A DNA stretch of 64,000 nt from Candidatus Yanofskybacteria bacterium RIFCSPHIGHO2_01_FULL_41_26 (GTDB lineage: Bacteria; Patescibacteriota; Minisyncoccia; 2-02-FULL-40-12; GWA2-44-9): contig MGJB01000006.1 in the NCBI GenBank assembly GCA_001794055.1, positions 26,168 through 90,167 of the forward strand. Direction: 5' to 3'. Made by a program: the position numbers and the translations under genes. The notes below the pieces were generated by a model. The model made no database searches, was not told where the DNA came from, and saw nothing but the letters and a program-made list of their open reading frames with translations. This document shows positions 23,204 to 49,364 of the stretch, in pieces. How positions within the stretch are numbered: position 1 is the first letter of the stretch; each line of letters starts with the position of its first letter.

Positions 23204-23238
23204 ATTTCTTATTCTTTAACAATTGCAGTGGAGTAACA

Positions 23239-25156: not shown

Positions 25157-25172
25157 CTTTATTTCGTATAAT
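25146..25172 (+). promoter_or_regulatory. Candidate promoter TTGCTT, 15-nt spacer, TATAAT. It ends only about 8 nt before the ATG at 25181, so the transcript may be leaderless.
   Basis: Seen in sequence: ttgctt ttttcctttatttcg tataat ttttaaca ATG. No SD is present. Confidence 0.3.
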
Positions 25173-25180
25173 TTTTAACA

Positions 25181-25729: not shown

Positions 25730-25734
25730 TCAGT

Positions 25735-27103: not shown

Positions 27104-27119
27104 AAAATAGGAGAACACC

Positions 27120-29248: not shown

Positions 29249-29276
29249 AAAGAACTCCGAATGAGTTCTTTTTTAT
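29247..29276. terminator. Bidirectional rho-independent terminator between convergent genes: aaaagaactc-cgaat-gagttctttt.
   Basis: 7-10 bp stem flanked by an A-run upstream and a T-run downstream, so it is symmetric. It lies exactly between the stop at 29248 (+) and the stop at 29276 (-). Confidence 0.55.
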
Positions 29277-30643
29277 TATGCAAGAGGATTTATGTCATCG
29301 AACGGAAATGTATTTCTGTTAAGCTCAGATGCGGATAGTCCGGCTTCTTTAATAAACGCGACCAGTTCAAGATAATTATTTACTATTTGTTCATTAGTCA
29401 AGGTTTTTCCCCAAGAAGCGTTTTCGTGATATTGAAAAGTTAACCTGGGTTTTTTATTATCGAGATTATGGATGTGCATTGTATTTTCCCAATCCGTCTC
29501 GATATTTCTTATTCCGAATTTATCAGGGTTGCGAAACACCTCTGTTCCGGGTCTGATAGTAAATAACGAAAGATATATCAAGTCGGGTTGTGTTTCTTTT
29601 ATGAAATTCAGTGTTAACTCAACTATATTGTCTGGCTCGCCAGGAAGACCCATTATTAGATAAATCCTAGCTTCAATGCCATTTGCTTTCAACATTGCAA
29701 TCGTATCTTTGGCTTTCTGAACACTGATCCTTTTGTTTATTAGATTAAGCGATGGTTGCCAGACGCTTTCTACCCCAAGACCGAGGGATATACAACCTGA
29801 TTGAAAGGCTAATCCAGCCAGTTCAGGTGTAATTCCGTCAACACGACACTGGCCACGCCAGAAAATATCTGCCCTTCCGATGGCTTCCAGTTCGGCAATA
29901 GCGCTGGAACGTTTTAATGGCAAAGCAATCTCATCAACTAAAGCTACGCCCTGTATTCCATATTCACGCTTTAAATATTCAATTTCATTCTCGATAAGTT
30001 CCGGAAGGCGAAAACGTATCCCTGGCGTCCCTTCTCTGGCTGTCCGCAAAGCACAAAAATGACAATTATACGGACAGCCTCGGCTGAAAATAACATTCGT
30101 GGAAACAAGGTCATTAAAACCAGGCTTGCTTTTTAAAGTCATCATTTTTCTTCGGGCTGTAGTACTTTTGGGCAGGAATTTTCTGTTTGGATGGCAATAC
30201 TCATTTATATCTATGACGCCCTGTTGCCTATAAATTTGTTGAAGTTTATTACAAGCCAGATCATTAACGGCCGCTATTATCGTTAACTCACCCTCTCCTA
30301 ATATGAGTGAGTCAAATATTCGAAGTGATTCTTGAGGAAATTCAACAGCATGAGGTCCGCCGGCAATGTGAACCGCTCTGGGATATTGCCGGCGCAGCAT
30401 TGCAACAATGGCTTTCTGTTCATTTATATCAAGTGTATAGATTGAATGAAGATAAACATCGCATTCCGGAATATGATAAAGGGCAAATTCTCTTTTTATT
30501 CCCCTTAGATCAGGAAGACAAAGCTCTACTCTGCTTCCAAAATATTCTTCCAAAATCGTAAGTATCTGTAGATGAGTAAAAGGATCCCCTCGGAACGGAT
30601 CATTGAGATAGTGGCTACTTGGTAAGATAAAACCTATCTTCAC
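29276..30643 (-). CDS. Cobalamin-binding (class B) radical SAM protein, copy 2.
   Basis: N-terminal B12-binding domain (KIGFILPS...HIAGGPHAV). Radical SAM motif CPYNCHFC. GTG start preceded by GAGAGGGGA. Confidence 0.75.
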   Translation of the reverse strand: MKIGFILPSSHYLNDPFRGDPFTHLQILTILEEYFGSRVELCLPDLRGIKREFALYHIPECDVYLHSIYTLDINEQKAIVAMLRRQYPRAVHIAGGPHAVEFPQESLRIFDSLILGEGELTIIAAVNDLACNKLQQIYRQQGVIDINEYCHPNRKFLPKSTTARRKMMTLKSKPGFNDLVSTNVIFSRGCPYNCHFCALRTAREGTPGIRFRLPELIENEIEYLKREYGIQGVALVDEIALPLKRSSAIAELEAIGRADIFWRGQCRVDGITPELAGLAFQSGCISLGLGVESVWQPSLNLINKRISVQKAKDTIAMLKANGIEARIYLIMGLPGEPDNIVELTLNFIKETQPDLIYLSLFTIRPGTEVFRNPDKFGIRNIETDWENTMHIHNLDNKKPRLTFQYHENASWGKTLTNEQIVNNYLELVAFIKEAGLSASELNRNTFPFDDINPLA

Positions 30644-30786
30644 CAGAGAATCCCCTCTCGATAATTTTTAAAAAACTGCCTCATTATGCGTCTTAATTCA
30701 ATAGTTGTAAACCTCAAAATTAAGTTGACAAATTAATCGAAGTTCATTACCGTATCTGAAAGTTCATTCAAAAAACAGGAGATAGC

Positions 30787-31368
30787 ATGAACTCGGTAAA
30801 ATCTTGGATTAAGATCGGCAACAAATCAGTTTTAGCCGAAGGTCGCAGCGGAAAAAGATTGATTAGCCAATTGTTCAAAAATCCAGCGAGCGGCCAACTC
30901 ATCGATTACACTCTTTTTGACGCCGATTTTATTTCTGTCATAATTTTCCCTTTGACAACAAACGGGGAGGTAATCGCCGTCCGACAATTCCGTATGGGAA
31001 TAGATAGGGTATCACTCGAATTACCGGGGGGTAATAAAAAAGTTGAAGATAAAAATTTTATCGAGACAGCCGAAAGAGAGCTGAGGGAAGAAACCGGATA
31101 CAAAGCAGGTCAAATAATTCCGTTAGCAGACAAATTGTGGATAGATCCATCATCATGTACACCCTACCTCTATTCATTCCTGGCTCTGGAATGCAAAAGA
31201 ACAGAAAAGACAGAAGAAGATGCTAACGAAATTATAGAAACAGTGACTATGCCGCAATCAAAGTGGATAGACATGATATCTGGAGGTAAAATATCCGATA
31301 TGAAAACAATCGCCATAACTCTGCTTGCTATTTCTCACTTATCAGATAAACTAATAATCAGTACCTAA
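30787..31368 (+). CDS. Nudix hydrolase.
   Basis: Nudix box GGNKKVEDKNFIETAERELREETGY (Gx5Ex7REuxEExGu). 193 aa. AGGAG SD. Confidence 0.8.
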   Translation: MNSVKSWIKIGNKSVLAEGRSGKRLISQLFKNPASGQLIDYTLFDADFISVIIFPLTTNGEVIAVRQFRMGIDRVSLELPGGNKKVEDKNFIETAERELREETGYKAGQIIPLADKLWIDPSSCTPYLYSFLALECKRTEKTEEDANEIIETVTMPQSKWIDMISGGKISDMKTIAITLLAISHLSDKLIIST

Positions 31369-31385
31369 GAATAAGGAGAGATTAG

Positions 31386-32135
31386 GTGGAAGATAGCTTC
31401 ATTCTGACCAGAGAACAAATCCTGTTTTATAGAAAGAACGGATACTTAGTGGTGCCCCATGTCCTCACTTGCGAACAATGCGATAAGATGAATCAAATCT
31501 TTGAACAGTACGCCAAAGATCACGGTGATAAAGAATTCAAAGGCATAATGAATCTCGACAGAGAAGATCATCGAATAAGAGACCTTTTGCGCTATTATAA
31601 AATTGTTTTAATCCTTGACGCTCTTCAGGATGGCGAGGTTGTAGGTCTTCAATCAATGTTTTTATTTAAAAAAGGCGGAACTGATTATGCTCCGCAGGCC
31701 TGGAACCCACATCAAGATAACGCTTACCCTAGAGCTCCCCACGGTATGTATCTAACCGGCAACATTCCTTTTGCCGACCAAGATAGAGAAAACGGGTGTA
31801 TGTATATTTATCCGGGTTCACACATGGAAAGCCTTCTTCCTGCTGATTTCTTCAAAAGCTTCCACGAAGAACCAGGCAAGAATCCTGGACACGATGTTTC
31901 AAGAAGCCTGCCGTTAGACTATCCGAGAGTTGATTTGCCGATGAAAAAGGGCTCCGTGTTGATTCTTCACGGAAATGTAGTTCATGGTTCATATCCCAAT
32001 AGATCACAGAGAGATAGGCCAATGCTCTTGATACCTTTTGGGACCAAAGGTATAACCCAACAGCCAAATTTTATCCCCGGCAAAACCGCTAAGCGTGAAG
32101 AATTCAGCTTAAGACCCTTAAGCTATAAACTTTGA
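31386..32135 (+). CDS. Fe(II)/2-oxoglutarate-dependent dioxygenase of the phytanoyl-CoA dioxygenase (PhyH) family.
   Basis: Facial-triad candidates HQD (WNPHQDNAY) and a distal His (HGNVVHGSYPNRS). Conserved N-terminal YxxNGY (YRKNGYLVV). 249 aa. Confidence 0.65.
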   Translation: MEDSFILTREQILFYRKNGYLVVPHVLTCEQCDKMNQIFEQYAKDHGDKEFKGIMNLDREDHRIRDLLRYYKIVLILDALQDGEVVGLQSMFLFKKGGTDYAPQAWNPHQDNAYPRAPHGMYLTGNIPFADQDRENGCMYIYPGSHMESLLPADFFKSFHEEPGKNPGHDVSRSLPLDYPRVDLPMKKGSVLILHGNVVHGSYPNRSQRDRPMLLIPFGTKGITQQPNFIPGKTAKREEFSLRPLSYKL

Positions 32136-32161
32136 TAAACCCTGTAAAGTGATACAACATG

Positions 32162-32190
32162 ACCGCCCACCCAAAGGCGGTTTTTTAATT
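32162..32190 (+). terminator. Rho-independent terminator: accgcc-cacccaaa-ggcggt followed by TTTTTT.
   Basis: 6-bp GC-rich stem plus T-tract, 27 nt after the stop at 32135. Confidence 0.5.
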
Positions 32191-32269
32191 TGAAAAACTG
32201 GACAAAGAATATATTTTACGATATCGTATTTCAATTCAGTATCTTAAAAATTAATGGAGGGAGGGTCTT

Positions 32270-34153
32270 GTGACTGAACCGATTCAGCTCGGGACAAATC
32301 CGGCAATTCAAAAAATTGCCAACAAAATACGACGGGTCCTTCCTTCAGGTTGCAAACGCGTCTTACTTGTCGAGCCACCTAATGTGCCCGAGGAAGATTG
32401 GGATCCCGATGTAGCCACAAACAACAGATATCCAGTTTATGACCCCAAGGGTCTGGCAGTTTTATCATCTTGCATACAATTAAGAGGCTATGAAACGGAT
32501 GTCATGGATCTCAATTTCATGATCCAAGATAGTTTTAAAAATAATCCGAATGGTTTTGAATATCGAAATTGGGAAAACTGGTTAAGACAAAAATTAGGAG
32601 AGTTTAAGCCTCATGTAGTCGGCCTTACTTGTATGTTCACCATATATCATCGTTCTATGACAAGGATTGCCCAATTGATCAAAGAATATAACCCGCAAAT
32701 AATCATCATCGCTGGTGGCGTTCACTCTACTATGGCCTCATCTGATGTTAAATCGGCTCCCGGCCAATTAGTTCTTGAGGACTGTAAAGAAATTGATTTT
32801 GTCGGCCTTTATGAAGGCAATGACAGTTTCCCGGATTTTCTTGACATGGCAAACAACAAACTGGAACCAGAAAACCTCACTCAAATTGCCACATTAGTAG
32901 ATAATAATTATGTAGCCATTACAAGAAGAACGGAACCAAGAACGGAAACACTGAATGCTTTGCCGAATTATCATGACTTGCCAATTGAAAGATATAGCTC
33001 CCTTGGAAGAATCGGCACTTTTTATTGGTTATTTAAGCCGGATACTCGAGCAGCTACCATCCTAGTAAATAGAGGTTGTCGCGCTCATTGCAGATTTTGT
33101 TCAGTAGAGAAGTTCAACGGCAAGGGTGTCGTGTTAAAACGGGACATAGAGATGATTGGTGATGAATTGGAATTCTTAAGAGATAAGTATGGAATTAATC
33201 ATGTAATGATTCTCGACGATGACCTTCTTAATGGAGAGGAGCGGACTGTTGCTCTTTTTGAAGATTGGCAAAAAAGAAAATTAGGCATTACTTGGGATGC
33301 ATCTAATGCGGTGATCGCATCGGCGCTAACTCCAGAAATAGCTCACGCAGCAGCCGAATCAGGATGTATCGCTTTAAGTTTCGGCATTGAATCCGGCAAT
33401 CCTCAAGTGCTTAAAAATATACCCAAACCAAGCGGAGTGCCTCATTATCTCCGGGCCGGTGAAATAATGAAAAAACACCCTCAAATATTCACTAAAGGAT
33501 TGTTAATGGTCGGTTTCCCGCCTGAACCTGAAAGAAATTTTCCCGGCGAATCAATAAGAATGATCTGGGACACCATAAATCTTGCAAAACAAATGGATCT
33601 GGACTGGTATACTATCCAACCCCTTAACCTTATTCCGGGCGTTGAGATGACCAACCATGCCCTAGTCCGAGGAGAGATAACAAAACAAGAATTAATAGAT
33701 GGATCAGAAAGACCGGTAGTAGGTTCGACCGGCAAACAAGACCGGCGAAGCAAAGAAGAGAAGACAAAAGCCTTGCCCTTTATAAGTCATCTTCATGATG
33801 AGAATTTAGACAGAATTCCCCTAAGAAAAGAACTTATCGATATATGGTTCGTAATGGATTATATGGTCAATTATGAGAAACTCTGGAATCTGGAACTTCC
33901 GATCAAAATACAAATGCTCCACAAGCTGTTCGTCAACATGTGTGACAGGACCCATAAAGAGAATGCTTTGGGTAATTTATTCTTTGCTCTTTTAGAGTAC
34001 CGACTTGGACACAAAAAGATGGCAAATGACAGATTAAGATTAGCTAGAGAATTTTCAGCGACTAACGACTATTGGAGGAAAAGGTTTCCAGTATTAGGAT
34101 TAGACGGACTTGTCGAGAAACTACAGCACATGATAGATCAATTACGGGACTAG
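32270..34153 (+). CDS. Cobalamin-binding (class B) radical SAM protein, copy 3, with a long C-terminal extension.
   Basis: B12-binding N-terminus (RVLLVEPP...IIIIAGGVHST). Radical SAM motif GCRAHCRFC. GTG start preceded by GGAGGGAGGG SD. 627 aa. Confidence 0.75.
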   Translation: MTEPIQLGTNPAIQKIANKIRRVLPSGCKRVLLVEPPNVPEEDWDPDVATNNRYPVYDPKGLAVLSSCIQLRGYETDVMDLNFMIQDSFKNNPNGFEYRNWENWLRQKLGEFKPHVVGLTCMFTIYHRSMTRIAQLIKEYNPQIIIIAGGVHSTMASSDVKSAPGQLVLEDCKEIDFVGLYEGNDSFPDFLDMANNKLEPENLTQIATLVDNNYVAITRRTEPRTETLNALPNYHDLPIERYSSLGRIGTFYWLFKPDTRAATILVNRGCRAHCRFCSVEKFNGKGVVLKRDIEMIGDELEFLRDKYGINHVMILDDDLLNGEERTVALFEDWQKRKLGITWDASNAVIASALTPEIAHAAAESGCIALSFGIESGNPQVLKNIPKPSGVPHYLRAGEIMKKHPQIFTKGLLMVGFPPEPERNFPGESIRMIWDTINLAKQMDLDWYTIQPLNLIPGVEMTNHALVRGEITKQELIDGSERPVVGSTGKQDRRSKEEKTKALPFISHLHDENLDRIPLRKELIDIWFVMDYMVNYEKLWNLELPIKIQMLHKLFVNMCDRTHKENALGNLFFALLEYRLGHKKMANDRLRLAREFSATNDYWRKRFPVLGLDGLVEKLQHMIDQLRD

Positions 34154-34168
34154 ACAGTCCCTTTTTAA
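34146..34168 (+). terminator. Hairpin gggact-agac-agtccc plus TTTTT, overlapping the stop codon.
   Basis: 6-bp stem. The stop codon TAG lies inside the stem-loop. T-tract follows. Confidence 0.45.
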
Positions 34169-34211
34169 TTACTTATAATATCACAAAGCTTTTTAACAAT
34201 GAGGTTGCTCG

Positions 34212-35597
34212 GTGTTGCAAAACGTTGATCCGAACATATTGAAAACAACTAACGCCTTTATGTATACCGAATATCCCCATAAAAGCTTCTGGTCAACTGA
34301 CCTAAGGAGCGACGATTATCACTCGGCATTATTAAAACTGCTTACAGAAGAACCAGATGCTCCACTTTTGTTATATGTTCACATTCTCTACTGTACCCAG
34401 CTTTGTTGGTTCTGCACATGTCATATAGGAGAAATAACCAAAAGTCTGGACAAAAGACAGAATTATCTTGAGATGCTTTATCTAGAAATTAGTCTGTTAA
34501 AAAAAATTATTACTGGACACTCATTGACTCCAAATTTTACGGAAATACACTTAGGTGGTGGCTCTCCAAGCGATCTTGACACGCCTGACTTTGATCGACT
34601 GATAGAAAACTTGGAATCGATGGTAAATATTAGAAATTTGAGCGAATTTTCCATTGAAATAGACCCGAGACACACAACCAGAAAAATGCTTCTGTATTAT
34701 CATAACAAAGGGATAAACAGAATTTCAATAGGCATACAGGACTTCGATCCACAAGTCCAAGCGGCCATTAACCGAGTTCAGTCGATTGAACTAGTAGAAA
34801 ACCTGATGAGTGATGAAACAATCGCTCTTTTTCCAAACGGAGTAAACTTTGACATTATCTGCGGTTTGCCCCATCAAACGACAGATACCATAGCAAGAAC
34901 AATGAATGAATGCGTGCGACTTTCACCGGACAGGATATGCTTAAATTATCTCCACCTAGCTCCTGAGTTTGCAAAACATCAGAACTTGATGTTTGACGGG
35001 AAATACGGCAGACCCAATCATTTGCCCGACTATTACGAAAGGAAAAAACTTTTTGCCGCAGCCCTTGAAATCTTAACCAAAAACGGCTATGTGCGAACTG
35101 GATACGACCATTTTGCCAAATCGACTGATTCTGTGGCGAGAGCAATGTCAGAGGGCAAAATGCATTGGAACTCGTTAGGAGTAACTTCGGGAAGATATAA
35201 TAATGTAATAGGGGTCGGCGTTCACAGTTATAGCACCATTGGAAACAGCTACTTCCAAAACCACTATGATATTCCATCATACAAACACTCGCTTGAACTG
35301 AATACTTTGCCGATATTCCGTGGACACCGGCTGAACAGAGATGACCTGATACGCCGAGACGTAATTCAAACTTTACGCAATTTCTTTTCTGTGGATTTTG
35401 CGAACATTGAAACTAAATACGGAATTATTTTTGAAACCTACTTCAAAACCGAAATAGATACCTTGGACGATTATGTCAAAGACGGACTTGTCAAAATTAG
35501 AGACAGATCAATCGTCATAACGGAAAAAGGATATCAATTTGCCAACACGGTATGCTATGTTTTCGACGCATACAAAAGCCCAAGACCCAAGTTTTAA
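34212..35597 (+). CDS. HemN-like radical SAM protein (coproporphyrinogen-III-oxidase family; HemW / class C radical-SAM-methyltransferase-like).
   Basis: Motif LYVHILYCTQLCWFCTC (CxxxCxxC in a HemN-type context). About 460 aa with a HemN-like C-terminal region. GTG start. Confidence 0.6.
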   Translation: MLQNVDPNILKTTNAFMYTEYPHKSFWSTDLRSDDYHSALLKLLTEEPDAPLLLYVHILYCTQLCWFCTCHIGEITKSLDKRQNYLEMLYLEISLLKKIITGHSLTPNFTEIHLGGGSPSDLDTPDFDRLIENLESMVNIRNLSEFSIEIDPRHTTRKMLLYYHNKGINRISIGIQDFDPQVQAAINRVQSIELVENLMSDETIALFPNGVNFDIICGLPHQTTDTIARTMNECVRLSPDRICLNYLHLAPEFAKHQNLMFDGKYGRPNHLPDYYERKKLFAAALEILTKNGYVRTGYDHFAKSTDSVARAMSEGKMHWNSLGVTSGRYNNVIGVGVHSYSTIGNSYFQNHYDIPSYKHSLELNTLPIFRGHRLNRDDLIRRDVIQTLRNFFSVDFANIETKYGIIFETYFKTEIDTLDDYVKDGLVKIRDRSIVITEKGYQFANTVCYVFDAYKSPRPKF

Positions 35598-35612
35598 AAC
35601 TTGGGTTTTTAC
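35586..35612 (+). terminator. Rho-independent terminator: cccaagtt-ttaa-aacttggg plus TTTTT.
   Basis: 8-bp stem containing the stop codon, followed by a T-tract. Confidence 0.5.
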
Positions 35613-35677
35613 TTGACATAAGCATCAATGTTCTTTAATATTCCGCCAAGTTCGTTGAAATTATACGGGAGGTAGTA

Positions 35678-36484
35678 ATGGATTTAGAGCTTAAGGGGCG
35701 TATAGCTCTGGTCACAGGAAGTTCCAATGGCTTAGGAAAAGCCATTGCCCTTGCCTTGGCGCAAGAAGGAGCCGATGTAATAATTAACGGGCGCAACAGA
35801 GAAACCCTTAACAACACGGCTCTTGAGATTGGAATGAAATCAAATACTAATATCCACAACTGTCATGTTGATGCCACCGACCCGGAGGGTATAAAACAAT
35901 TTTTTAGAATCAATAACTTTTGGCTTAAGAGATTGGATATATTGGTAAACAATGTCGGCAACTTGGAAAAATTTGGAAATTTTTCCAATCTTGAAGATAG
36001 AGATTGGATGAGAAGTTATGAATTAACATTTATGAGTATGGTGCGCTTCACCAGAGAAGCTCTTCCATTGTTGAAGAAATCCCCCGGAGCATCTATCCTA
36101 AACATTGGGAGCTTGGTATCACATCAACCCGGAAAATTCAATCATCATTATGTGGCAGCTAAAGCAGCAATGCTGGCAGTAAGTAAGCAAATGGCCAACG
36201 AATTCGGTGCTTTTGGAATAAGGGTAAACGTTGTTTGTCCAAGTACCATTAAAGATGGCGGTTGGATAAGAAATGTTCAAGATAGAGCAAAGCGGATGAA
36301 TGTTTCCCCACAAGAAGCAGAACAGGCAATGGAAGATGATGCCAAAGCAAGGTCTCCTCTTGGAATAATTGGCCACGCAGACGATGTATCTGGTTTAATT
36401 GTTTTTTTGGCATCGGACAAGGCAAAATTTCTAACCGGCCATTGTTATAATGTAGATGGCGGGATAACCCGCTCTGCAATTTAG
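35678..36484 (+). CDS. Classical SDR oxidoreductase (3-oxoacyl-ACP-reductase-like).
   Basis: TGSSNGLGKAIALAL (TGxxxGxG). NNVG motif. YVAAKAAM (YxxxK). Confidence 0.8.
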   Translation: MDLELKGRIALVTGSSNGLGKAIALALAQEGADVIINGRNRETLNNTALEIGMKSNTNIHNCHVDATDPEGIKQFFRINNFWLKRLDILVNNVGNLEKFGNFSNLEDRDWMRSYELTFMSMVRFTREALPLLKKSPGASILNIGSLVSHQPGKFNHHYVAAKAAMLAVSKQMANEFGAFGIRVNVVCPSTIKDGGWIRNVQDRAKRMNVSPQEAEQAMEDDAKARSPLGIIGHADDVSGLIVFLASDKAKFLTGHCYNVDGGITRSAI

Positions 36485-36498
36485 GGAAAAGGGAAACA

Positions 36499-37482
36499 AT
36501 GAACAAAAGAACGGCGCTTATCACTGGCATTTTTGGATCTGGAGCAAGTTATCTGGCTGAATACATTGTCGCTAATCATCCCAACGTAGAACTTCATGGC
36601 ACTTTTCGTTCGTGTAGTTCCCGCTCTCAAAAAAATATTCAAAGCATTAGAAATAAATTATTTCTTCATAATTGCAACCTGGATGACTATTCCGCCACAT
36701 ACCGATTAATTGCTGGACTAAAACCTGACCTTGTTTTTCACATTGCCTCCTATGCCGACGTAAGGAAATCTTGGGACAAAGCGATCTTTACCCTGCGAAA
36801 TAATATCATCAGTACAGCAAATCTGTTGGAAGCAATCCGATTGGCCAATATACATCCCCGGGTCCAAATGTGCAGTACGCCTGAAGTATATGGTCAAGTA
36901 GATCCCAAAAATATCCCAATTGATGAAAGCTGTCCAATTAATCCAAACAACCCCTATGCCGTATCCAAATTCGCACAAGAATCGCTTGGATATTCTTATT
37001 TCAAAGGCTACGGTCTGCCGATGATTATTACTCGCATGTCCACCTACATCAATCCGAGGCGGGCAGATCTTTTTGCCACCGCATTCGCGATGCAAGTGGC
37101 GCGCATAGAAGCCGGCTTGCAGAAAGAATTGCGACACGGCAATCTTGATTCTACTAGGACCATCCTTGATCCTAGAGACTGCGCCAGCGCCTATTGGGCC
37201 GCCATCGATAAAGGCGAACCCGGCGAGGTCTACAATATTGGCGGGGCCACAATAGTAACGGTGGGGGAATTTCTGGAAATTCTAAAAGTGAAAGCCCTAT
37301 GTTCAGTTCCTTCCAGAGTAGACGAAAATTTGTTTCGGCCGGTAGATGTTACTCTGCAAGTGATAAATACCGAAAAGTTTTTCAAACAAACCAGATGGCA
37401 GCCAAGATTTAGCTTCGAAGAAAGCGTAGAACATCTTCTAAATCACTGCCGGCAGGAAGTCAGGAAAGAACTGCCGAGATGA
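36499..37482 (+). CDS. Extended-SDR nucleotide-sugar dehydratase/reductase, GDP-mannose 4,6-dehydratase-like (Gmd/Rmd-like).
   Basis: ALITGIFGSGASYLAEYIV parallels the Gmd motif [26 protein letters not shown] (YxxxK). 327 aa. Confidence 0.6.
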   Translation: MNKRTALITGIFGSGASYLAEYIVANHPNVELHGTFRSCSSRSQKNIQSIRNKLFLHNCNLDDYSATYRLIAGLKPDLVFHIASYADVRKSWDKAIFTLRNNIISTANLLEAIRLANIHPRVQMCSTPEVYGQVDPKNIPIDESCPINPNNPYAVSKFAQESLGYSYFKGYGLPMIITRMSTYINPRRADLFATAFAMQVARIEAGLQKELRHGNLDSTRTILDPRDCASAYWAAIDKGEPGEVYNIGGATIVTVGEFLEILKVKALCSVPSRVDENLFRPVDVTLQVINTEKFFKQTRWQPRFSFEESVEHLLNHCRQEVRKELPR

Positions 37483-38432
37483 GGACAAAGAGAGTATTAA
37501 TTTGCGGAGCAAGCGGATTTATAGGACGAAATTTGTTTGAACACTTTGATTCCAATGGTTATGAAACTTACGGAACTTACTTAAAAAGTAGGCCGCAAGT
37601 TTTCAATCCCAAAATTATCCCGGTTGATTTAAGGGATAAATATAAGGCGCTCCAAATAATGCAAGGCATGGATATAGTAATTAATGCTGCAGCCATGACC
37701 GCGGGCATAGGAGTATATTCGGAAGAAACAAACGCTAAAGAATTTGTGGAAACAAATAACAGGATCAACGCAAATCTGGTGGAATCAGCTCATGTCAACA
37801 GGGTCGGACATTTTGTTTTTTTAAGCTGTACCATAATGTATCCCTCAAGCATTGTTCCTCTTAAAGAAAACGAGTCTGATGTGGACAGGGTGCATCCGAA
37901 ATATTCTGTTTTAGCTGAAATTAAAATTTTGGGAGAAGAGGGCTGCCAATACTTTGCCGGTATGGGCTCAACTAAATATACGACCGTAAGACACACAAAT
38001 GTTTACGGCCCGTATGATAAATTTGACCTTAAACACGGCCATGTATTATCTGCCACGATCGAAAAGGTTATGACTTCGCAAAACAACGAAATCATCGTCT
38101 GGGGCAGTGGACAGGAATCAAGAGATTTTCTATATATCAACGATCTGATCGAATTCATTAGGAGAGCTGTTAATCTCCAAGCAAACAATTTTGAGATATT
38201 TAATGTCGGCTCCGGAAAAACATACTCCATCAACGAATTGGTTGGGGTTATAATTTCACATTCCGGAAAAGAACTTAAAGTCATCCACGATCTCACAAAA
38301 CCTTCCATTGAAACATATATGAATATAGATGCCGGCAAAGCAAAACGTCTTATTGGCTGGCAAGCAAAAACAAACTTGAATGAAGGCATAAGAAAAACGA
38401 TTGAATGGTACAAAAAAAATCATCCGCATTAA
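37479..38432 (+). CDS. NAD-dependent epimerase/dehydratase (extended SDR).
   Basis: VLICGASGFIGRNLFEHF Rossmann motif. 317 aa. The start overlaps the upstream stop (ATGA). Confidence 0.7.
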   Translation: MRTKRVLICGASGFIGRNLFEHFDSNGYETYGTYLKSRPQVFNPKIIPVDLRDKYKALQIMQGMDIVINAAAMTAGIGVYSEETNAKEFVETNNRINANLVESAHVNRVGHFVFLSCTIMYPSSIVPLKENESDVDRVHPKYSVLAEIKILGEEGCQYFAGMGSTKYTTVRHTNVYGPYDKFDLKHGHVLSATIEKVMTSQNNEIIVWGSGQESRDFLYINDLIEFIRRAVNLQANNFEIFNVGSGKTYSINELVGVIISHSGKELKVIHDLTKPSIETYMNIDAGKAKRLIGWQAKTNLNEGIRKTIEWYKKNHPH

Positions 38433-38448
38433 AAATGCGGATTTTCTT
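38422..38448 (+). terminator. Rho-independent terminator: atccgcat-taaaa-atgcggat plus TTTTCTTT.
   Basis: 8-bp stem that includes the stop codon, followed by a T-tract. Confidence 0.5.
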
Positions 38449-38513
38449 TGACAAACTAGTATTTTTACGATATAAATCCCTCAAAGTACATTGATAATTT
38501 GAGGGGAAAATAA

Positions 38514-40658
38514 ATGTCGCCAAAAATAATACCCCTTTCAGTTGTGGCTGAGAGTCCCCCACCAATGACCGTTACCCGCCCCAATAGAAAAATAAAAATA
38601 GGCCCCGTCCAGCTTAACAACAGTTTTTCAGAACAATCATATTTCCCAACTTCTGTTGGTATGCTTCAAGCATATGGACAGAAGCATTTAACCCATGCTG
38701 ATTTTTTTGAATTTCTACTTATTATAAAAGATTTCATGCCTATATCAGAAGCCGTGGATAGACTACGCGATGCCCATATTTTAGCCCTCAGTTTGTATGT
38801 TTGGAATTTTGAAAACTCTATAGCCATTGCCAAAGAGTTTAAGAAACGTTATCCGAAAAGATTAGTAGTTGTCGGTGGACCCCACGTCCCTGACAGCAAG
38901 AAACAATTTGTCAGAATAAAGAAAACTGACCCGCAATCCGATGAGCTAAAAAGAAAAAGGATGGGAATGACTGAAAAATTCCACAGAGATCATCCAGAGA
39001 TTGACATAGCTGTTCATGGTGAAGGCGAAAGAATTTTTAAAATGATATTGGAGCAGTTCCCCAACAATCTCGCCGATAAAAGCCAAATCCAGTCGATTAG
39101 CTACATAGATACTGAGGGCAACTTCCACCATAATCCAAAGCTTGAGAGGATGCATGATCTGTCCGAAGTTCCATCACCATACCTTACCGGCGTGTTTGAT
39201 CCGCTTATGGCCGCATACCCCGATCAGAAATGGATTGCCATGTGGGAAACTGACCGCGGCTGTCCTTATCAATGCACCTACTGCGATTGGGGTGGTGCTA
39301 TTGAGGATAAAATTAGCCTCTTCGCCATGGATCGTATTATTAAAGAAGCCTGGTGGTTTGCGAATAATAGGGTGCCGTATGTCTTTATTGCTAACGCCAA
39401 CTTTGGTCTTCCAAAACAGGATGTACAAATTGCAAAAATCTTGGCCGAAGTCAAAAAAGCCACTGGATACCCCGAAGGCGTATCCGTTCAGAATGCAAAA
39501 AATCCTAAGCCACACACATTAGAAGCCCTGGAAATTCTCCAAGAAGCTGGACTGAACAAAGCAACCGTAATGTCAATTCAGTCAAAAAACAAAGATACCC
39601 TCGGAGCAGTTCGCCGACAAAATATGAAGCCTGAAGAATATCAGTCAATTCAAAAAAGGTTAAGAGCTCAAGGTGTAAATACAATGACTGATTATATTCT
39701 TGGCATGCCCATGGAAACGTACGAAAGCGTATTACAAGGTGTTTCTAATATCATTGATGACGGACAACATGATAGAATTCAGTTTAACAATCTTTCCATA
39801 CTACCCAATGCAGAAATGGGCGATCCGGAATACCAAGAAGAGTACGGGATGGAAATGATTAGGACACCAATTACGAACATCCACGGCAAGAAAAATGCAT
39901 CCATCAGCGGTATTGAAGAATATCAAGAATTGGTTATTGCAACTAATACCATGCCCCGAGAGGCATGGGTCAAGACTCGTTCATTTTGCTATTTGGTGGG
40001 ATTGATCTACTTTAATAAGCTTCTTCAGATACCCATTATGATCTTACATGAAATTTATGAGATCCCTTACCGCATAATATTTGAGGCTTTTATGGAAAGT
40101 CCGGGACAGTCAGATAAATTCCCAGTTTTTAAAGAAATTCTAGACTTCTTTCAGGAATTTTCTCGGGGCATTCAAAATGGCACAAACGAGGAGTTCTTCC
40201 ACTCAAAGGAGTGTCTGGACATTCTGTGGCCGCCAGACGAATATGCATTTATAAAAGTATGCAAAGATGGCAAGATCAGACAATTTTACGAAGAAGCTGA
40301 GAAAATGATGTTGGATCTTCTCAAGCCTGACCAAACCCCTGAACCCCTTCTTGATGCCGTAAAACTTAACAGCTTACTAATTAAGTTGCCTTTTCAAACC
40401 ACCGATTTGGAAATAAATTTATCTTACAACGTTTGGGAAGTTTACAAGGCCGCCCGCATAGAGCAAAAATTAGAACTTCAACGAGGAATCTACAACTATC
40501 ACGTTGACAGGACAACTAAGTCAATGTCCTCACACATAAATGCAAGGTGGGATTCGTGGGAAGAGTGGTATGAAAAGATGGTCTGGTGGTGCAATCGAGG
40601 GGGTGCTTATCTTTACGGAAACATCAATCCGCATCAAGAAATAGTCGGACATCATTAA
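38514..40658 (+). CDS. Cobalamin-binding (class B) radical SAM protein, copy 4 (714 aa, long C-terminal extension).
   Basis: B12-binding N-terminus (ILALSLYVWN...RLVVVGGPHVP). Radical SAM motif GCPYQCTYCDWGG. GAGGGG SD. Confidence 0.75.
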   Translation: MSPKIIPLSVVAESPPPMTVTRPNRKIKIGPVQLNNSFSEQSYFPTSVGMLQAYGQKHLTHADFFEFLLIIKDFMPISEAVDRLRDAHILALSLYVWNFENSIAIAKEFKKRYPKRLVVVGGPHVPDSKKQFVRIKKTDPQSDELKRKRMGMTEKFHRDHPEIDIAVHGEGERIFKMILEQFPNNLADKSQIQSISYIDTEGNFHHNPKLERMHDLSEVPSPYLTGVFDPLMAAYPDQKWIAMWETDRGCPYQCTYCDWGGAIEDKISLFAMDRIIKEAWWFANNRVPYVFIANANFGLPKQDVQIAKILAEVKKATGYPEGVSVQNAKNPKPHTLEALEILQEAGLNKATVMSIQSKNKDTLGAVRRQNMKPEEYQSIQKRLRAQGVNTMTDYILGMPMETYESVLQGVSNIIDDGQHDRIQFNNLSILPNAEMGDPEYQEEYGMEMIRTPITNIHGKKNASISGIEEYQELVIATNTMPREAWVKTRSFCYLVGLIYFNKLLQIPIMILHEIYEIPYRIIFEAFMESPGQSDKFPVFKEILDFFQEFSRGIQNGTNEEFFHSKECLDILWPPDEYAFIKVCKDGKIRQFYEEAEKMMLDLLKPDQTPEPLLDAVKLNSLLIKLPFQTTDLEINLSYNVWEVYKAARIEQKLELQRGIYNYHVDRTTKSMSSHINARWDSWEEWYEKMVWWCNRGGAYLYGNINPHQEIVGHH

Positions 40659-40663
40659 TGTTT

Positions 40664-40689
40664 AACGGACTTGTAAAAGTCCGTTTTTT
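40664..40689 (+). terminator. Rho-independent terminator: aacggac-ttgtaaa-gtccgtt plus TTTTTT.
   Basis: 7-bp stem 6 nt after the stop, followed by a T-tract. Confidence 0.5.
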
Positions 40690-40722
40690 GTTATTTAATA
40701 AACCCAGTTATTTAACATCGGG

Positions 40723-41721
40723 GTGTGCATGCCTGAAAACAGTAATTTTTTTAGAGGAAAGAGTGTTCTTGTCGCCGGTGGTACTGGTCTTATAGGAATA
40801 CCTTTGGTAAAAATTCTTCTCGAGCAAGGAGCGAGCGTTAGGATTGTCTCTTTGGATAGTCCTTCTCGAGCACATCCTCAAGCAGAATTCATGCCTCTTG
40901 ACCTTACCATACTAGATAACTGCTCAAGAGCCTGTCTGGGAATGGATTACGTTTTTAATTTGCTATGCATTAAGGGCTCACCTAAGACAATGGTCACCAA
41001 GCCTGCCAGTGTGTTTTATCCGATGCTGACATTTAATACTCAACTAATGGAAGCGGCTTGGCGGTGCAAGGTTAACGGGTTTTTGTTTACCAGCTCAATT
41101 GGAGTTTACGAGCCAGCAGAAGTACTCCGCGAGAATGATGTTTGGCAAACATTCCCTTCTCCCAATGATCGTTTTGCTGGTTGGGTGAAAAGAATGGGAG
41201 AACTGCAAGCAGAGGCTTACAGAATAGAGCACGGCTGGAATAATATAAACATTGTCAGACCATCCAATGTTTATGGACCCTATGACAATTTTGATTCAAA
41301 TAGCGCCATGGTCGTCCCATCATTAATCAAAAGAATGACAAGAGGAGAAAATCCTTTTGTGGTTTGGGGAAACGGAACTGCAAAGAGAGATTTTATCCAC
41401 GCAGAAGATGTGGCCAGAGGGATGATTTTGGTGACAGAAAAAAATCCAGGTGTTCCGGTAAATCTAGGCTCCGGAATCGGCACTTCAATAAAAAAATTAG
41501 TCGAAATAATCAGATCAAATTCACCGATCAAGCCAAACATCGTCTGGGACGATTCTATGCCCAGTGGAGATAAAAAGAGAATCTTAGACATATCTCGGGC
41601 AACAAATCTTGGTTTTAGACCGCAAATCAATCTTGAAGATGGAATACGAGATACATATAAATGGTATTCAGTAAATAGGGATAGGGTCGGAAATCGTTAT
41701 GACGTTTTTAATAAGAGTTAA
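40723..41721 (+). CDS. NAD-dependent epimerase/dehydratase (GDP-L-fucose-synthase-like extended SDR).
   Basis: VLVAGGTGLIGIPLVKILL. PSNVYGPYDNF, like the PANLYGPxDNF of Fcl-type enzymes. The likely true start is the ATG at 40729. Confidence 0.7.
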   Translation: MCMPENSNFFRGKSVLVAGGTGLIGIPLVKILLEQGASVRIVSLDSPSRAHPQAEFMPLDLTILDNCSRACLGMDYVFNLLCIKGSPKTMVTKPASVFYPMLTFNTQLMEAAWRCKVNGFLFTSSIGVYEPAEVLRENDVWQTFPSPNDRFAGWVKRMGELQAEAYRIEHGWNNINIVRPSNVYGPYDNFDSNSAMVVPSLIKRMTRGENPFVVWGNGTAKRDFIHAEDVARGMILVTEKNPGVPVNLGSGIGTSIKKLVEIIRSNSPIKPNIVWDDSMPSGDKKRILDISRATNLGFRPQINLEDGIRDTYKWYSVNRDRVGNRYDVFNKS

Positions 41722-41745
41722 ACCGCTTAAAGCGGTTTTTGTTTG
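41721..41745 (+). terminator. Rho-independent terminator: aaccgct-taa-agcggtt plus TTTTTGTTTGTTTT.
   Basis: 7-bp stem at the stop codon, followed by a T-tract. Confidence 0.5.
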
Positions 41746-49362: not shown

Positions 49363-49364
49363 TT

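Follow-up and report, generated by a model that had tools for sequence, protein, structure and literature searches.

The analysed window, a stretch of 64 kb, originates from Candidatus Yanofskybacteria (CPR), a tiny groundwater bacterium. Domain annotation of the window ORFs revealed that the entire 64 kb is a glycan locus, with a Bac_transf priming transferase, a Wzx-like flippase, an ABC exporter, GT2 and GT4 transferases, YfhO, two NeuB/cytidylyltransferase sets and GMD. In a preliminary description, an island of ten genes had been delimited at 29276-41721. The coordinates given for these genes matched the ORF calls exactly, and their stated domains were confirmed; as described, the interval contains no glycosyltransferase or aminotransferase recognisable by Pfam and is flanked by sugar genes. 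The gene content of the island was thereby confirmed but not its extent, since the unit begins near 22124. The upstream extension contributes a sugar kinase, a thiamine-dependent E1-like enzyme and a ColD-type 3-dehydratase.

Three genes of the interval encode B12-binding radical SAM enzymes, in agreement with the preliminary description, each with a single CxxxCxxC motif and a B12 domain, which in the third is recognised through homology to TokK. The first of them, rS1 (29276-30643, minus strand, 455 aa), displays Pfam B12-binding and Radical_SAM domains, the former at 32.8 bits against a cutoff of 32.1, and the motif CPYNCHFC at residue 190. Its top NCBIfam match was PhpK (98 bits, cutoff 600) and its top PDB match AprD4 (E 1.2e-10). 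Orthologs with 52-62% identity were found in Magnetospirillum, Elusimicrobia and others. The second enzyme, rS2 (32270-34153, plus strand, 627 aa), carries the same Pfam domains (B12-binding, 44.1 bits), a C-terminal helical domain and the motif CRAHCRFC at residue 270. As modelled, it folds like a cobalamin radical SAM enzyme, the closest structures to its AlphaFold prediction (pLDDT 87.7) being all of this type, namely TsrM, MgmA, OxsB and CysS. Both rS1 and rS2 scored far under every curated NCBIfam family cutoff.

The third enzyme, rS3 (38514-40658, plus strand, 714 aa; CPYQCTYC at residue 250), was placed in the TokK/ThnK/CysS/KedN5 clade of cobalamin radical SAM enzymes by PDB and NCBIfam searches. 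It aligned with TokK (PDB 7kdx) with an E value of 2e-84 over residues 39-526 to 18-479, a region that includes the TokK cobalamin domain, and with CysS with E 2e-47 (PDB sequence search). Pfam gave Radical_SAM and a sub-threshold B12-binding match (25.9 bits, cutoff 32.1), and the NCBIfam KedN5 score of 243.7 bits was under the 700 cutoff. TokK and CysS are cobalamin-dependent sp3 C-methylases, and rS3 is a close, genuine relative of both; it is predicted to be an sp3 C-methylase. The C-methylation proposed for the island is thus backed by homology for rS3 but not for the other three of the four radical SAM enzymes. B12-radical-SAM enzymes also perform chemistry other than methylation, and rS1 and rS2, which are distant from characterised enzymes, could catalyse a dehydration, rearrangement or cyclisation instead. 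Two further B12-radical-SAM genes lie beyond the interval (17419-18999, minus strand; 51420-53144, plus strand), and the five B12 enzymes of the window share pairwise identities of merely 19-27%.

The fourth radical SAM enzyme, gHemN (34212-35597, plus strand; Pfam Radical_SAM and HemN_C), has its single CxxxCxxC motif at residue 61. Its assignment to the HemN family held: it passed the NCBIfam hemN equivalog TIGR00538 with 348.7 bits (cutoff 324.95), matched 1OLT with E 2e-74 and aligned over the full length with E. coli HemN at 36% identity. It is not close to the class C methyltransferases that the preliminary description had mentioned for this family, as the match to NocN, a member of that class, covered the core only (59.9 bits). 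gHemN falls in a monophyletic clade with a mean identity of 31% to 60 diverse canonical HemNs. It retains the HemN iron-sulfur and first-SAM residues but has substitutions at F310, Q311 and I329, and in the clade F310, Q311, Y313 and I329, kept in 56-57 of the 60 canonical sequences, are replaced. According to published mutagenesis, these four residues are reportedly needed for HemN activity. gHemN therefore represents a distinct glycan-associated HemN clade with a remodelled pocket and, because of this, its GenBank name ('oxygen-independent coproporphyrinogen III oxidase') is probably mistaken. A natural HemN-PhyH fusion protein (P0200) was also found, whose C-terminal half and the PhyH protein of the window share 39% identity (E 7e-48).

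This PhyH-family Fe(II)/2-oxoglutarate dioxygenase (31386-32135, plus strand; Pfam PhyH, 94 bits) shows the iron-binding residues HQD...HGNVVHG, which are kept in the fusion protein, and its PDB relatives include PHYHD1, SnoK/SnoN and KanJ. The Nudix hydrolase (30787-31368, plus strand; Pfam NUDIX) resembles the nucleoside-diphosphate-X pyrophosphatases NudE and NudK, with sub-cutoff NCBIfam scores of 51 and 32 bits, respectively, and contains the Nudix-box core RELREETGY. The remaining genes of the interval, all on the plus strand, encode SDRs: a classical oxidoreductase (35678-36484; Pfam adh_short), an extended GDP-mannose-4,6-dehydratase-like protein (36499-37482; Pfam GDP_Man_Dehyd 202.7 bits; NCBIfam gmd 131.6, cutoff 415) and two extended GDP-fucose-synthase-like proteins. 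One of the latter, of the epimerase/reductase type (37479-38432; NCBIfam GDPFucSynFcl 148.6 bits, cutoff 500), had homologs in 34 of 48 HemN-anchored loci. The other (40723-41721; GDPFucSynFcl 144 bits, sub-cutoff) is a conserved partner of rS3, with which it was paired in 10 loci; its orthologs beside rS3 share 50-63% identity.

The upstream genes are also encoded on the plus strand. The GHMP-family sugar kinase (22124-23152; Pfam GHMP_kinases_N/C) is nearest to the heptose-7-phosphate kinase HddA and fucokinase (NCBIfam HddA 154 bits, under the 600 cutoff), and is a conserved module partner: homologs with 36-61% identity were found within 10 kb of rS2 in 31 of 80 genomes. It is followed by a fused alpha/beta E1-type thiamine-diphosphate enzyme, pyruvate-dehydrogenase-like (23239-25122; Pfam E1_dh and Transket_pyr; NCBIfam PDH E1 alpha/beta matches, all sub-cutoff), with homologs as split alpha and beta subunits in 17 of 48 HemN-anchored loci and also in L039 and L083. 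Formation of two-carbon sugar branches by a PDH-like E1 together with a non-haem-iron enzyme has been published, the E1 precedents being AviB1/AviB2 and Pau11/Pau12 (PMC4425429). By analogy, the E1-type enzyme is a candidate two-carbon branch donor. A DJ-1/PfpI family protein (25181-25729; Pfam 147.9 bits; NCBIfam TIGR01382 146.6 bits, over the 139 cutoff) typically adjoins the cupin protein (25735-26469; Pfam Cupin_2 31.9 bits, weak MannoseP_isomer match), this adjacency being observed in 12 loci. The cupin, a possible sugar isomerase or epimerase, had homologs in 22 of 80 rS2 loci. A HAD-family phosphatase (26438-27103; Pfam HAD_2 89 bits; NCBIfam matches all sub-cutoff) precedes a protein of DegT fold (27120-28313), whose best PDB matches were ColD (2gms, E 4.5e-47) and CDP-6-deoxy-4-hexulose 3-dehydrase (3bcx). 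In this protein a His is aligned with the first His of ColD ('YFGHQFSTVEGG' vs 'FYSHHIATMEGG'). We take this column to be the position of the aminotransferase catalytic Lys, occupied in ColD by His188. The protein was accordingly classified as a ColD/E1-type PMP-dependent sugar 3-dehydratase, and an aminotransferase assignment was rejected. Finally, a GalE/RmlB-like extended SDR, SDR0 (28313-29248; Pfam Epimerase), is the commonest rS2 neighbour, with homologs of 52-77% identity in 36 of 80 loci.

The six hairpin and T-tract sites previously described all exist; one scan recovered five of them and a second one all six. Each is a perfect stem (dG -8 to -12.4 kcal/mol) with a T-rich tail and is regarded as a putative terminator. 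All are located on the plus strand: 3' of PhyH (32161-32182, -10.9 kcal/mol), overlapping the rS2 stop codon (34146-34161, -8.0), with the gHemN stop codon within the loop (35584-35607, -12.4), 3' of the three-SDR unit (38422-38442, -10.3), 3' of rS3 (40664-40685, -11.8) and 3' of the last SDR (41720-41738, -8.8). In addition, a bidirectional hairpin carrying a T-tract on each strand (29248-29272, dG -9.4 kcal/mol) separates the convergent SDR0 and rS1 genes, and promoter-like sites follow the rS2 and gHemN hairpins (34151-34179 and 35613-35641). Of the proposed organisation in monocistronic cassettes the hairpins stood, but the Nudix-PhyH pair and the SDR trio (35678-38432) lack internal ones. 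Hairpins end 7/10 island genes versus 14/49 other genes of the window; none of the six radical SAM genes in the window lacks one. The total of 23 terminator-like sites between 27 and 45 kb did not exceed that of shuffled sequences (17.2 +/- 4.4); the signal therefore lies in hairpin placement and not in number. Hairpin density is mainly a trait of the genome rather than of the module.

The recurrence of the gene set was evaluated with two anchors: rS2, with more than 449 homologs (80 genome loci, neighbours within 10 kb), and the HemN-like gene (80 metagenome contigs, counts taken from 48 loci of at least 8 kb). Both retrieved the same set, in CPR, DPANN archaea, Elusimicrobia, Nitrospira, Nitrospinae, anammox bacteria, Acidobacteria, SAR11 single-cell genomes and cultured Magnetospirillum sp. 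UT-4. This uncharacterised set is present in more than 10 microbial phyla, which led us to reject the idea of a CPR-specific oddity. In the 80 rS2 loci, the neighbours were homologs of SDR0 (36), GHMP (31), DJ-1 (23), the cupin (22), HemN-like (21), PhyH (20), rS3 (17) and rS1 (16) genes. The 48 HemN-anchored loci contained rS2-family (42), PhyH (26), rS3 (25), rS1 (21) and E1 (17) genes. At least four of the five radical/oxygenase genes occurred in 26 of 160 loci, and all five in 4. The commonest adjacencies among the 160 loci were HemN-rS2 (28), HemN-PhyH (21) and PhyH-rS2 (16). rS2 is thus the anchor of a conserved module, and rS2, the HemN-like enzyme and PhyH are its core trio. Loci L083 (Nitrospinae), L039 (Magnetospirillum sp. 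UT-4) and L084 exemplify the module, with RmlC, DegT, Nudix, GHMP and GT41 genes as neighbours across this group (Nudix in L039). The nucleotide-sugar and glycan context claimed for the window was likewise found in every related locus examined.

The best reading of the gene set appears to be radical tailoring of a branched deoxysugar. We consider it reasonably likely that the module (about 22124-41721) tailors an activated deoxysugar for a cell-surface glycan, the interval being its radical-chemistry half. This sugar would probably be GDP-linked; the carrier is only putative because the kinase has no recognisable nucleotidyltransferase next to it in the window, L039, L083 or L084. What the module acts on, how its steps are ordered, which reaction each enzyme performs and that the product reaches the cell surface are inferred from the genes present. 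The GHMP kinase would generate the sugar phosphate and the GMD-like SDR a 4-keto-6-deoxy intermediate, from which the ColD-type PMP enzyme would remove the 3-hydroxyl. A two-carbon branch could then be transferred from pyruvate to the keto sugar by the E1-type enzyme, with participation of an Fe/2OG oxygenase after the AviB1/AviB2/AviO2 precedent. ColD-type and E1 genes are present in a minority of loci only; therefore the dehydration and branching steps are not universal. Subsequently, rS3 would add one or possibly several methyl groups to an unactivated sp3 carbon, and its partner SDR would reduce the keto group. Two more radical steps and one hydroxylation of the same intermediate could be performed by rS2, the HemN-like enzyme and PhyH; for the HemN-like enzyme an oxidation or decarboxylation initiated by HemN-type H-abstraction seems likeliest, methyl transfer being the alternative. 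The remaining SDRs and the cupin may set the stereochemistry, and the Nudix hydrolase may trim or proof-read the nucleotide-sugar pool. An O2-dependent dioxygenase beside O2-sensitive radical SAM enzymes fits this pathway awkwardly. The sugar radical tailoring suggested in the preliminary description is therefore supported in part, by the glycan setting and the kinship of rS3 to methylases, but not as methylation by the other three enzymes.

Alternatively, the radical enzymes might modify a non-carbohydrate substituent (an acyl, hydroxy-acid or amino-acid side group) made separately and later joined to an amino or deoxy sugar, or a finished lipid-linked glycan. The nearest characterised relatives of rS3 alkylate non-sugars, the substrate being a carbapenam for TokK and a carrier-bound methoxybenzoate for CysS, according to the PDB descriptions and PMC12846815. 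In related loci there are also genes for an HMGL-like aldolase, a class I/II aminotransferase, an aldo-keto reductase and an enolase-superfamily protein, which could indicate a non-sugar acid as substrate, and the lack of a recognisable nucleotidyltransferase near the kinase would agree with this reading. However, the steadiest neighbours are nucleotide-sugar-type SDRs, the sugar-type GHMP kinase and DegT-family enzymes, while neither the conserved gene set nor the Pfam matches in 22124-41721 include a carrier protein, ligase or acyltransferase, which makes this option rather unlikely. It is improbable, too, that PhyH and one radical SAM enzyme are aerobic and anaerobic alternatives for a single step, with fewer reactions than genes. 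Such pairs have precedents in HemF/HemN and AcsF/BchE, the dioxygenase is tightly linked, and once fused, to O2-sensitive enzymes, and the module occurs in anaerobes (anammox, delta-proteobacteria) as well as aerobes (Nitrospira, SAR11). Against this, many loci, some of them from aerobes, keep the HemN-like gene and rS2 without PhyH, a covalent fusion is more typical of successive steps, and we know of no case in which PhyH and HemN act as oxygen alternatives.

The destination of the product could also differ. To our knowledge, the characterised sugar-acting B12-radical-SAM enzymes, GenK, Fom3 and AprD4, all belong to antibiotic pathways, which would favour, over a surface glycan, a diffusible secondary metabolite that is glycosylated or derived from a sugar and resembles aminoglycosides or orthosomycins. 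The same is true for the E1-type sugar-branching enzymes AviB1/B2 and Pau11/12 (PMC4425429). Nevertheless, this seems quite improbable for a module flanked by a priming phosphoglycosyl transferase, a Wzx-like flippase, an ABC exporter, YfhO and nonulosonic-acid genes, accompanied in related loci by Wzx, PMT_2, GT2, GT4 and GT41 genes, devoid of the aglycone, resistance and regulator genes typical for antibiotic clusters, and hosted by genome-reduced CPR, DPANN and SAR11, among others. That gHemN is an ordinary coproporphyrinogen dehydrogenase or HemW-type haem chaperone, simply located in a glycan locus, would agree with its TIGR00538 score, its end-to-end HemN alignment and its GenBank name. 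It is hardly credible given the separate monophyletic clade with four replaced residues, the B12-radical-SAM neighbours in 42 of 48 clade loci, the sugar character of all loci inspected, the clade member fused to PhyH and the lack of any other haem gene in the window (Pfam).

No published account of such a sugar-tailoring pathway was found in the literature searched, in line with the earlier claim, and a 2026 review on B12-radical-SAM enzymes nowhere mentions sugar, glycan or polysaccharide. The module is widespread and laterally shared. CPR bacteria are not expected to synthesise their own cobalamin, and the presence of five B12 enzymes in the window therefore implies cobalamin scavenging. 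The product of the module would probably be a heavily carbon-alkylated cell-surface sugar.

The genes predicted in the interval 29276-41721, here called the island, coincided exactly in their coordinates with those of the preliminary description, and on HMM comparison all of its domain assignments were borne out by Pfam. Three genes encode B12-type radical SAM enzymes, referred to as rS1 (29276-30643, minus strand, 455 aa), rS2 (32270-34153, 627 aa) and rS3 (38514-40658, 714 aa). B12-binding and Radical_SAM domains were found in rS1 and rS2, and a Radical_SAM domain with a sub-threshold B12-binding match in rS3. The island further contains a Nudix gene (30787-31368, Pfam NUDIX), a PhyH dioxygenase gene (31386-32135; PF05721, 94.2 bits vs a cutoff of 22), a HemN-like radical SAM gene (34212-35597, Radical_SAM and HemN_C) and four SDR genes. 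As had been claimed, Pfam detected no glycosyltransferase or aminotransferase inside it. A single CxxxCxxC motif per radical SAM protein was found by sequence scan. The iron-binding residues HQD and HGNVVHG are visible in PhyH, and its PDB relatives include the sugar-acting SnoK/SnoN and KanJ. Sequences identical to the island proteins are deposited for two Candidatus Yanofskybacteria (CPR/Patescibacteria) metagenome-assembled genomes (OGM98935-OGM98943 and OGN21031-OGN21038). An assembly chimera can be dismissed, since the proteins recur on many independent contigs, the longest of 262 kb.

According to Pfam, the entire 64-kb window is a glycan locus, with genes for a priming phosphoglycosyl transferase, a Wzx-like flippase, an ABC exporter, GT2, GT4 and YfhO proteins, a true GDP-mannose dehydratase (GMD, 62593-63636) and a second NeuB/cytidylyltransferase set. 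Neither a cobalamin or SAM riboswitch nor any other Rfam match was found in the window. With glycan genes present both here and in the related loci, the central idea of radical sugar tailoring in a nucleotide-sugar/glycan setting stands.

A complete legionaminic/pseudaminic-type nonulosonic-acid operon is present in this CPR genome at 8834-17269 (minus strand), encoding a CBS-SDR dehydratase, a DegT aminotransferase, a hexapeptide acetyltransferase, a NeuC-like epimerase, NeuB, a cytidylyltransferase and a 417-aa protein without a Pfam hit. Its HisH/HisF-like amidotransferase pair suggests an acetamidino substituent. An MptE-like protein (18983-20104, minus strand), weakly matching the flagellin-modification protein PseD, may be a Maf-type nonulosonic-acid transferase. 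Its gene overlaps by 17 bases the start of the adjoining B12-radical-SAM gene, one of two more B12-binding radical SAM genes located outside the island (17419-18999, minus strand, and 51420-53144, plus strand). Each carries a CxxxCxxC motif and its own terminator hairpin; the former adjoins the nonulosonic-acid operon and the MptE/Maf-like gene, and the latter lies directly upstream of a CMP-sugar-type cytidylyltransferase. The second NeuB-family synthase is accompanied by a SIS isomerase, an SDR, several KdsC-like HAD phosphatases, an AAA_33 kinase-like protein and a second cytidylyltransferase (45650-50114, minus strand, 50162-51307 and 53167-53931), and the whole resembles a KDN/Kdo-like pathway to an ulosonic acid. 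An M48-type peptidase is encoded inside the glycan locus, as is a pyruvoyl-dependent arginine decarboxylase (2589-3792, plus strand), with the priming transferase on one side and a GT2 gene on the other. At 57717-61460 a YfhO-family GT-C membrane protein and a CDP-glycerol glycerophosphotransferase-like gene were found, and PMT_2 proteins occur in related loci; these genes hint at glycan transfer outside the membrane onto a teichoic-acid-like polymer or protein.

The radical SAM core of rS1, rS2 and rS3 scored above the Pfam cutoff. For the B12-binding family PF02310 (cutoff 32.1 bits), rS1 reached 32.8 bits, rS2 44.1 and rS3 25.9, the last below the cutoff. Despite this value, the N-terminus of rS3 aligns with the cobalamin domain of TokK (PDB 7kdx), the whole match covering residues 39-526 against 18-479 (E 2e-84, 287 bits), and CysS was matched with E 2e-47 and 165 bits. 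TokK and CysS are cobalamin-dependent methylases of sp3 carbons, sequential in the characterised cases; TokK and ThnK carry out carbapenem C6 alkylation, and CysS belongs to cystobactamid. The best NCBIfam family of rS3 was KedN5 (NF033712), with 243.7 bits vs a cutoff of 700. With TokK and CysS, rS3 shares its cobalamin domain, its radical SAM core and a portion of the C-terminal domain. Unlike TokK, ThnK, CysS and KedN5, however, rS3 bears a non-aligning C-terminal extension of about 190 residues and is surrounded by nucleotide-sugar SDRs, not by beta-lactam or NRPS genes.

rS1 and rS2 scored far under all curated NCBIfam cutoffs (best 98 and 117 bits), and their PDB sequence relatives are exclusively remote. 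The best for rS1 was AprD4 (E 1.2e-10), a remote match of the core only. An AlphaFold model of rS2 built with 16 homologs (pLDDT 87.7, pTM 0.89) gave TsrM, MgmA, OxsB, AprD4 and CysS as best structural matches, all of them cobalamin radical SAM enzymes or their kin. Class B membership of the three enzymes is thus supported at the fold level, with predicted cobalamin binding; AprD4 exemplifies that a cobalamin-type domain can exist without cobalamin. For rS3 alone, homology supports a predicted methyltransferase chemistry. Pairwise identity among the five B12 enzymes of the window was just 19-27%, which indicates five different subfamilies and not recent duplicates. The island has a logic in common with GenK/GenD1, Fom3 and AprD4/AprD3, namely a B12-type radical SAM enzyme modifying an unactivated carbon of a carbohydrate or nucleotide-activated intermediate, but those enzymes belong to antibiotic pathways (gentamicin, fosfomycin and apramycin, respectively), unlike the island. 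The resemblance to GenK, GenD1 and Fom3 is one that we presume. A phosphonate or P-methylation function was also considered, as rS1 and rS2 have P-methyltransferases as their best NCBIfam matches and PhyH has a weak one to methylphosphonate hydroxylase. With scores far under cutoff, and no PEP mutase in the scanned ORFs of the window, it was rejected.

One genome per species was scanned with an rS2 alignment, which yielded 80 loci. They span CPR, DPANN archaea, Elusimicrobia, Terriglobia, Nitrospira, Brocadia, delta-proteobacteria, Omnitrophota, Verrucomicrobia and relatives and SAR11 single-cell genomes, as well as the cultured Magnetospirillum sp. UT-4 and a Jiella sp. Homologs of the window genes were counted up to 10 kb from rS2: the upstream SDR was present in 36 of the 80 loci, the GHMP kinase in 31, DJ-1 in 23, the cupin in 22, the HemN-like gene in 21, PhyH in 20, rS3 in 17 and rS1 in 16. 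In the reciprocal test, the clade of the HemN-like protein served as anchor in metagenome contigs, and 48 loci of at least 8 kb were counted. An rS2-family gene occurred in 42 of them, PhyH in 26, rS3 in 25, rS1 in 21 and the E1 enzyme in 17. At least four of rS1, rS2, rS3, the HemN-like gene and PhyH were found in 26/160 loci, and all five in 4/160. The commonest adjacencies in the 160 loci were HemN-rS2 (28), HemN-PhyH (21), PhyH-rS2 (16), DJ-1-cupin (12) and rS3-SDR (10). Gene order was shuffled and gene content kept, even between close CPR relatives. The earlier impression of a CPR curiosity did not survive this neighbourhood comparison, which placed the gene set in many phyla.

Pfam neighbourhoods revealed the same gene set beside glycosyltransferases in L083 (Nitrospinae) and L084, and a third locus of the HemN-like clade (L081/L082) is again a glycan locus, without B12 enzymes. 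In Magnetospirillum sp. UT-4 (L039, NZ_CACVCG010000046.1), RmlC, DegT and Nudix genes on the opposite strand are followed by GHMP, HMGL-like, E1 alpha, E1 beta, SDR, SDR, rS1, rS2, HemN-like and rS3 genes, and then by those for an AKR, an aminotransferase, a radical-SAM-sulfotransferase fusion and GT41. The block rS1-rS2-HemN-like-rS3 is situated at about 63.3-70.0 kb of this contig. Next to the module (locus 17190-19373), the fusion joins a radical SAM domain to a sulfotransferase domain, and the GT41-family glycosyltransferase comes after it; the HMGL-like aldolase gene is placed between the kinase and E1 genes. A 1160-codon ORF in this locus was rejected as a HemN-rS3 fusion, being a high-G+C artefact with the genes in different frames. 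Four SAR11-labelled Pelagibacteraceae single-cell genomes (L038, L043, L071 and L076) contain rS2, HemN-like, PhyH and a relative of rS3, contamination being conceivable. SAR11 is generally regarded as lacking B12-dependent enzymes, and these genes were unexpected there. The kinase/SDR/DJ-1/rS2/cupin core is present in the anammox bacterium Candidatus Brocadia (L018 and L032). The S-layer O-glycan of its relative Kuenenia contains an unidentified 174-Da residue, read as a dimethylated deoxyhexose (PMC5088730); a link between this residue and the Brocadia core is possible, as a lead and not as evidence. Nitrogenase-paralog clusters of Elusimicrobia are likewise rich in B12 and HemN_C radical SAM genes (10.1101/765248). 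They were rejected as the same system, since the window has no Nif-like gene and the neighbours are sugar genes.

Because of the co-occurrence in related loci, the unit was found to start at the GHMP kinase (22124) and not at 29276, where the island had been delimited. For the flanking DegT-family gene (27120-28313, plus strand), at first sight an aminotransferase, the best PDB matches were ColD (2gms) and the CDP-hexulose 3-dehydrase E1, and ColD and E1 dehydrases made up the top six. In the alignment with ColD (2gms) a His occupies the column of ColD's first His, which we take to be the catalytic position filled by Lys in DegT aminotransferases and by His188 in ColD. Based on these matches and on the His at the Lys position, the product is predicted to be a PMP-dependent sugar 3-dehydratase, not an aminotransferase. 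Its score against NCBIfam RfbH (192 bits, cutoff 423) does not make it an equivalog. Automatic annotation would name this gene an aminotransferase. The SDRs are similar to GDP-mannose dehydratase and GDP-fucose synthase, and the GHMP kinase to the heptose kinase HddA and to fucokinase; each of these scores is under its NCBIfam equivalog cutoff. No nucleotidyltransferase was recognised beside the GHMP kinase. Only 12 bases upstream of this kinase there is a 593-aa ORF (20331-22112, plus strand), for which the family search gave a weak Pfam GT2 match at residues 307-339 and none in PDB or NCBIfam; it could encode the missing nucleotidyltransferase or a novel glycosyltransferase.

As in the colitose/3,6-dideoxyhexose pathways (GMD, ColD or E1, ColC), the module has a GMD-like SDR, a ColD-like dehydratase and GDP-fucose-synthase-like SDRs, but it goes beyond colitose synthesis: its radical SAM, E1 and dioxygenase steps have no colitose counterpart, and the scores are under equivalog cutoffs. 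The combination of E1 alpha/beta with a non-haem-iron oxygenase resembles, by enzyme type, avilamycin AviB1/AviB2-AviO2 and paulomycin Pau11/Pau12, with which yersiniose (YerE) can be grouped as a precedent of two-carbon-branched sugars. The PDH-like AviB1/AviB2 (with the non-haem-iron AviO2) and Pau11/Pau12 add two-carbon branches to 4-keto sugars (PMC4425429). The two enzyme types co-occur in L083 and in many HemN-like-anchored loci, in a 4-keto-deoxysugar context. The E1 alpha and beta parts of the window enzyme are fused and lie in a surface-glycan locus of uncultivated bacteria, whereas the Avi and Pau genes belong to actinomycete antibiotic clusters. The ColD-type and E1 genes were found in a minority of loci only.

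The six hairpins with T-tracts reported earlier were all found, plus a bidirectional one between 29248 and 29276. They display perfect stems (dG -8 to -12.4 kcal/mol) and T-rich tails. An origin as copies of a repeat element was rejected, the seven stems being unrelated in sequence. A gene-end hairpin follows 7 of the 10 island genes vs 14 of the 49 other window genes, and 6 of the 6 radical SAM genes of the window. Promoter-like sites were detected after the rS2 hairpin (34151-34179) and after the HemN-like hairpin (35613-35641). The proposed organisation in monocistronic cassettes held in part: the hairpins are real, but none occurs inside NUDIX-PhyH or within the three SDRs at 35678-38432. 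In related low-G+C loci, which are not independent of each other, a hairpin plus T follows 43/195 radical SAM genes and 32/294 others; in high-G+C loci it is nearly absent. These counts indicate that dense terminators characterise mainly this genome and those related to it, and there is weak evidence for a modest excess of such predicted terminators after radical SAM genes.

The HemN-like protein aligns end to end with E. coli HemN (PDB 1OLT, residues 22-445; 36% identity, E 2e-74). The suggested kinship with class C methylases was not sustained, as HemN gave 254 bits and the class C enzyme NocN (9p2u) 59.9 bits, over the core only. Scores against ChuW/HutW (124 bits) and HemW (108 bits) were both under cutoff, and by sequence comparison the protein is neither HemW-like nor a class C-like short form. 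It shares at least 50% identity with more than 118 database clusters. When 60 diverse canonical HemNs from a representative-library search were included in a neighbour-joining tree, this clade was monophyletic; mean identity is 55% within it and 31% to canonical HemNs (maximum 38%). The cluster and first-SAM residues (Y56, H58, C62, C66, C69, C71, GGG, E145, Q172, R184 and D209) are invariant in 118 clade members and the window protein. Positions 310, 311, 313 and 329 presumably form, according to published mutagenesis, the second-SAM/substrate site needed for HemN activity. There, F310, Q311, Y313 and I329 are kept in 56-57 of the 60 canonical HemNs (F310 in 57, Q or M at 311 in 57, I329 in 57), while the clade has A/S310, L311 (44/46), V313 and a variable residue 329; the window protein has S, L and Y at 310, 311 and 329. 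In summary, CxxxCxxCxC, the first-SAM residues and the HemN_C domain are common to both, but the HemN-like protein differs from HemN in its separate clade, its glycan loci and one known PhyH fusion. This natural HemN-PhyH fusion in a single polypeptide (P0200, from a metagenome contig of 2394 bases) has a C-terminal half 39% identical to the window PhyH, whose iron-binding residues it keeps. It couples an oxygen-sensitive catalyst to an oxygen-requiring one.

The most likely pathway, which we infer in all its steps, would start from an activated 4-keto-6-deoxy sugar, probably GDP-linked, to be 3-deoxygenated by the ColD-type enzyme. The E1 enzyme would then add a two-carbon branch with the help of the oxygenase, and the branched sugar would be C-methylated by rS3 and reduced by its partner SDR. 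Two radical steps and one hydroxylation would be contributed by the rS2/HemN-like/PhyH trio. For the HemN-like step, a HemN-type hydrogen abstraction followed by oxidation or decarboxylation is favoured, methyl transfer being the alternative. The remaining SDRs and the cupin would fix the stereochemistry, and the Nudix enzyme would hydrolyse nucleotide-sugar by-products or free the sugar phosphate. The product is tentatively proposed to be a previously unknown, multiply C-alkylated and C-branched deoxysugar that may be surface-displayed in more than 10 phyla.

It is rather unlikely that the radical enzymes instead modify a substituent that is not a sugar, or the glycan once completed. What TokK and CysS act on, together with the aldolase, aminotransferase, AKR and enolase genes of related loci, speaks for this reading; the nucleotide-sugar SDRs around rS3 point to a sugar. 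A secondary metabolite as product, in place of a surface glycan, would agree with the antibiotic pathways of the enzymes compared here, and is very improbable for a module set among flippase, exporter and glycosyltransferase genes. Improbable too, if a little less so, is that PhyH and a radical SAM enzyme are the aerobic and anaerobic alternatives for one step. That the HemN-like gene encodes a real haem enzyme is hardly conceivable. Its product just passes the NCBIfam hemN equivalog TIGR00538 (348.7 vs 324.95). No haem gene was found by Pfam among the ORFs of the 64-kb window, and the neighbours in the 48 HemN-like-anchored loci are sugar and radical SAM genes, not a haem context. For this clade, "oxygen-independent coproporphyrinogen III oxidase", the name in public records, is probably a misnomer. 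More than 100 protein clusters (at least 50% identity) are so named, which inflates the apparent haem capacity of genome-reduced organisms.

Almost all characterised cobalamin-dependent radical SAM enzymes belong to antibiotic, cofactor, pigment, lipid or RiPP pathways. What would be new here is that nucleotide-sugar tailoring, itself known, has recruited a new HemN clade along with three cobalamin radical SAM enzymes unrelated to one another. Full-text literature searches on radical SAM, B12 and HemN enzymes in sugar, glycan or CPR contexts turned up no description of the module, and a 2026 review of B12-radical-SAM enzymes never mentions sugar, glycan or polysaccharide. If the proposal is true, the HemN-like protein would give the first demonstrated case of a HemN-family enzyme with a carbohydrate substrate, and three mutually unrelated cobalamin radical SAM enzymes would operate in a single glycan pathway of primary metabolism. 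The presence of the module in the cultured Magnetospirillum sp. UT-4 makes it experimentally accessible. A conserved surface-glycan pathway with three B12 enzymes and a HemN-family enzyme would extend radical enzymology to a new class of substrates. That a single CPR glycan locus encodes five B12 enzymes implies an investment of scavenged cobalamin in the cell surface by these episymbionts. The phyla displaying the C-alkylated deoxysugar would include CPR bacteria, DPANN archaea, SAR11, Nitrospira and anammox bacteria, and such a pathway would point to an unrecognised sugar in environmentally dominant, poorly cultured lineages.
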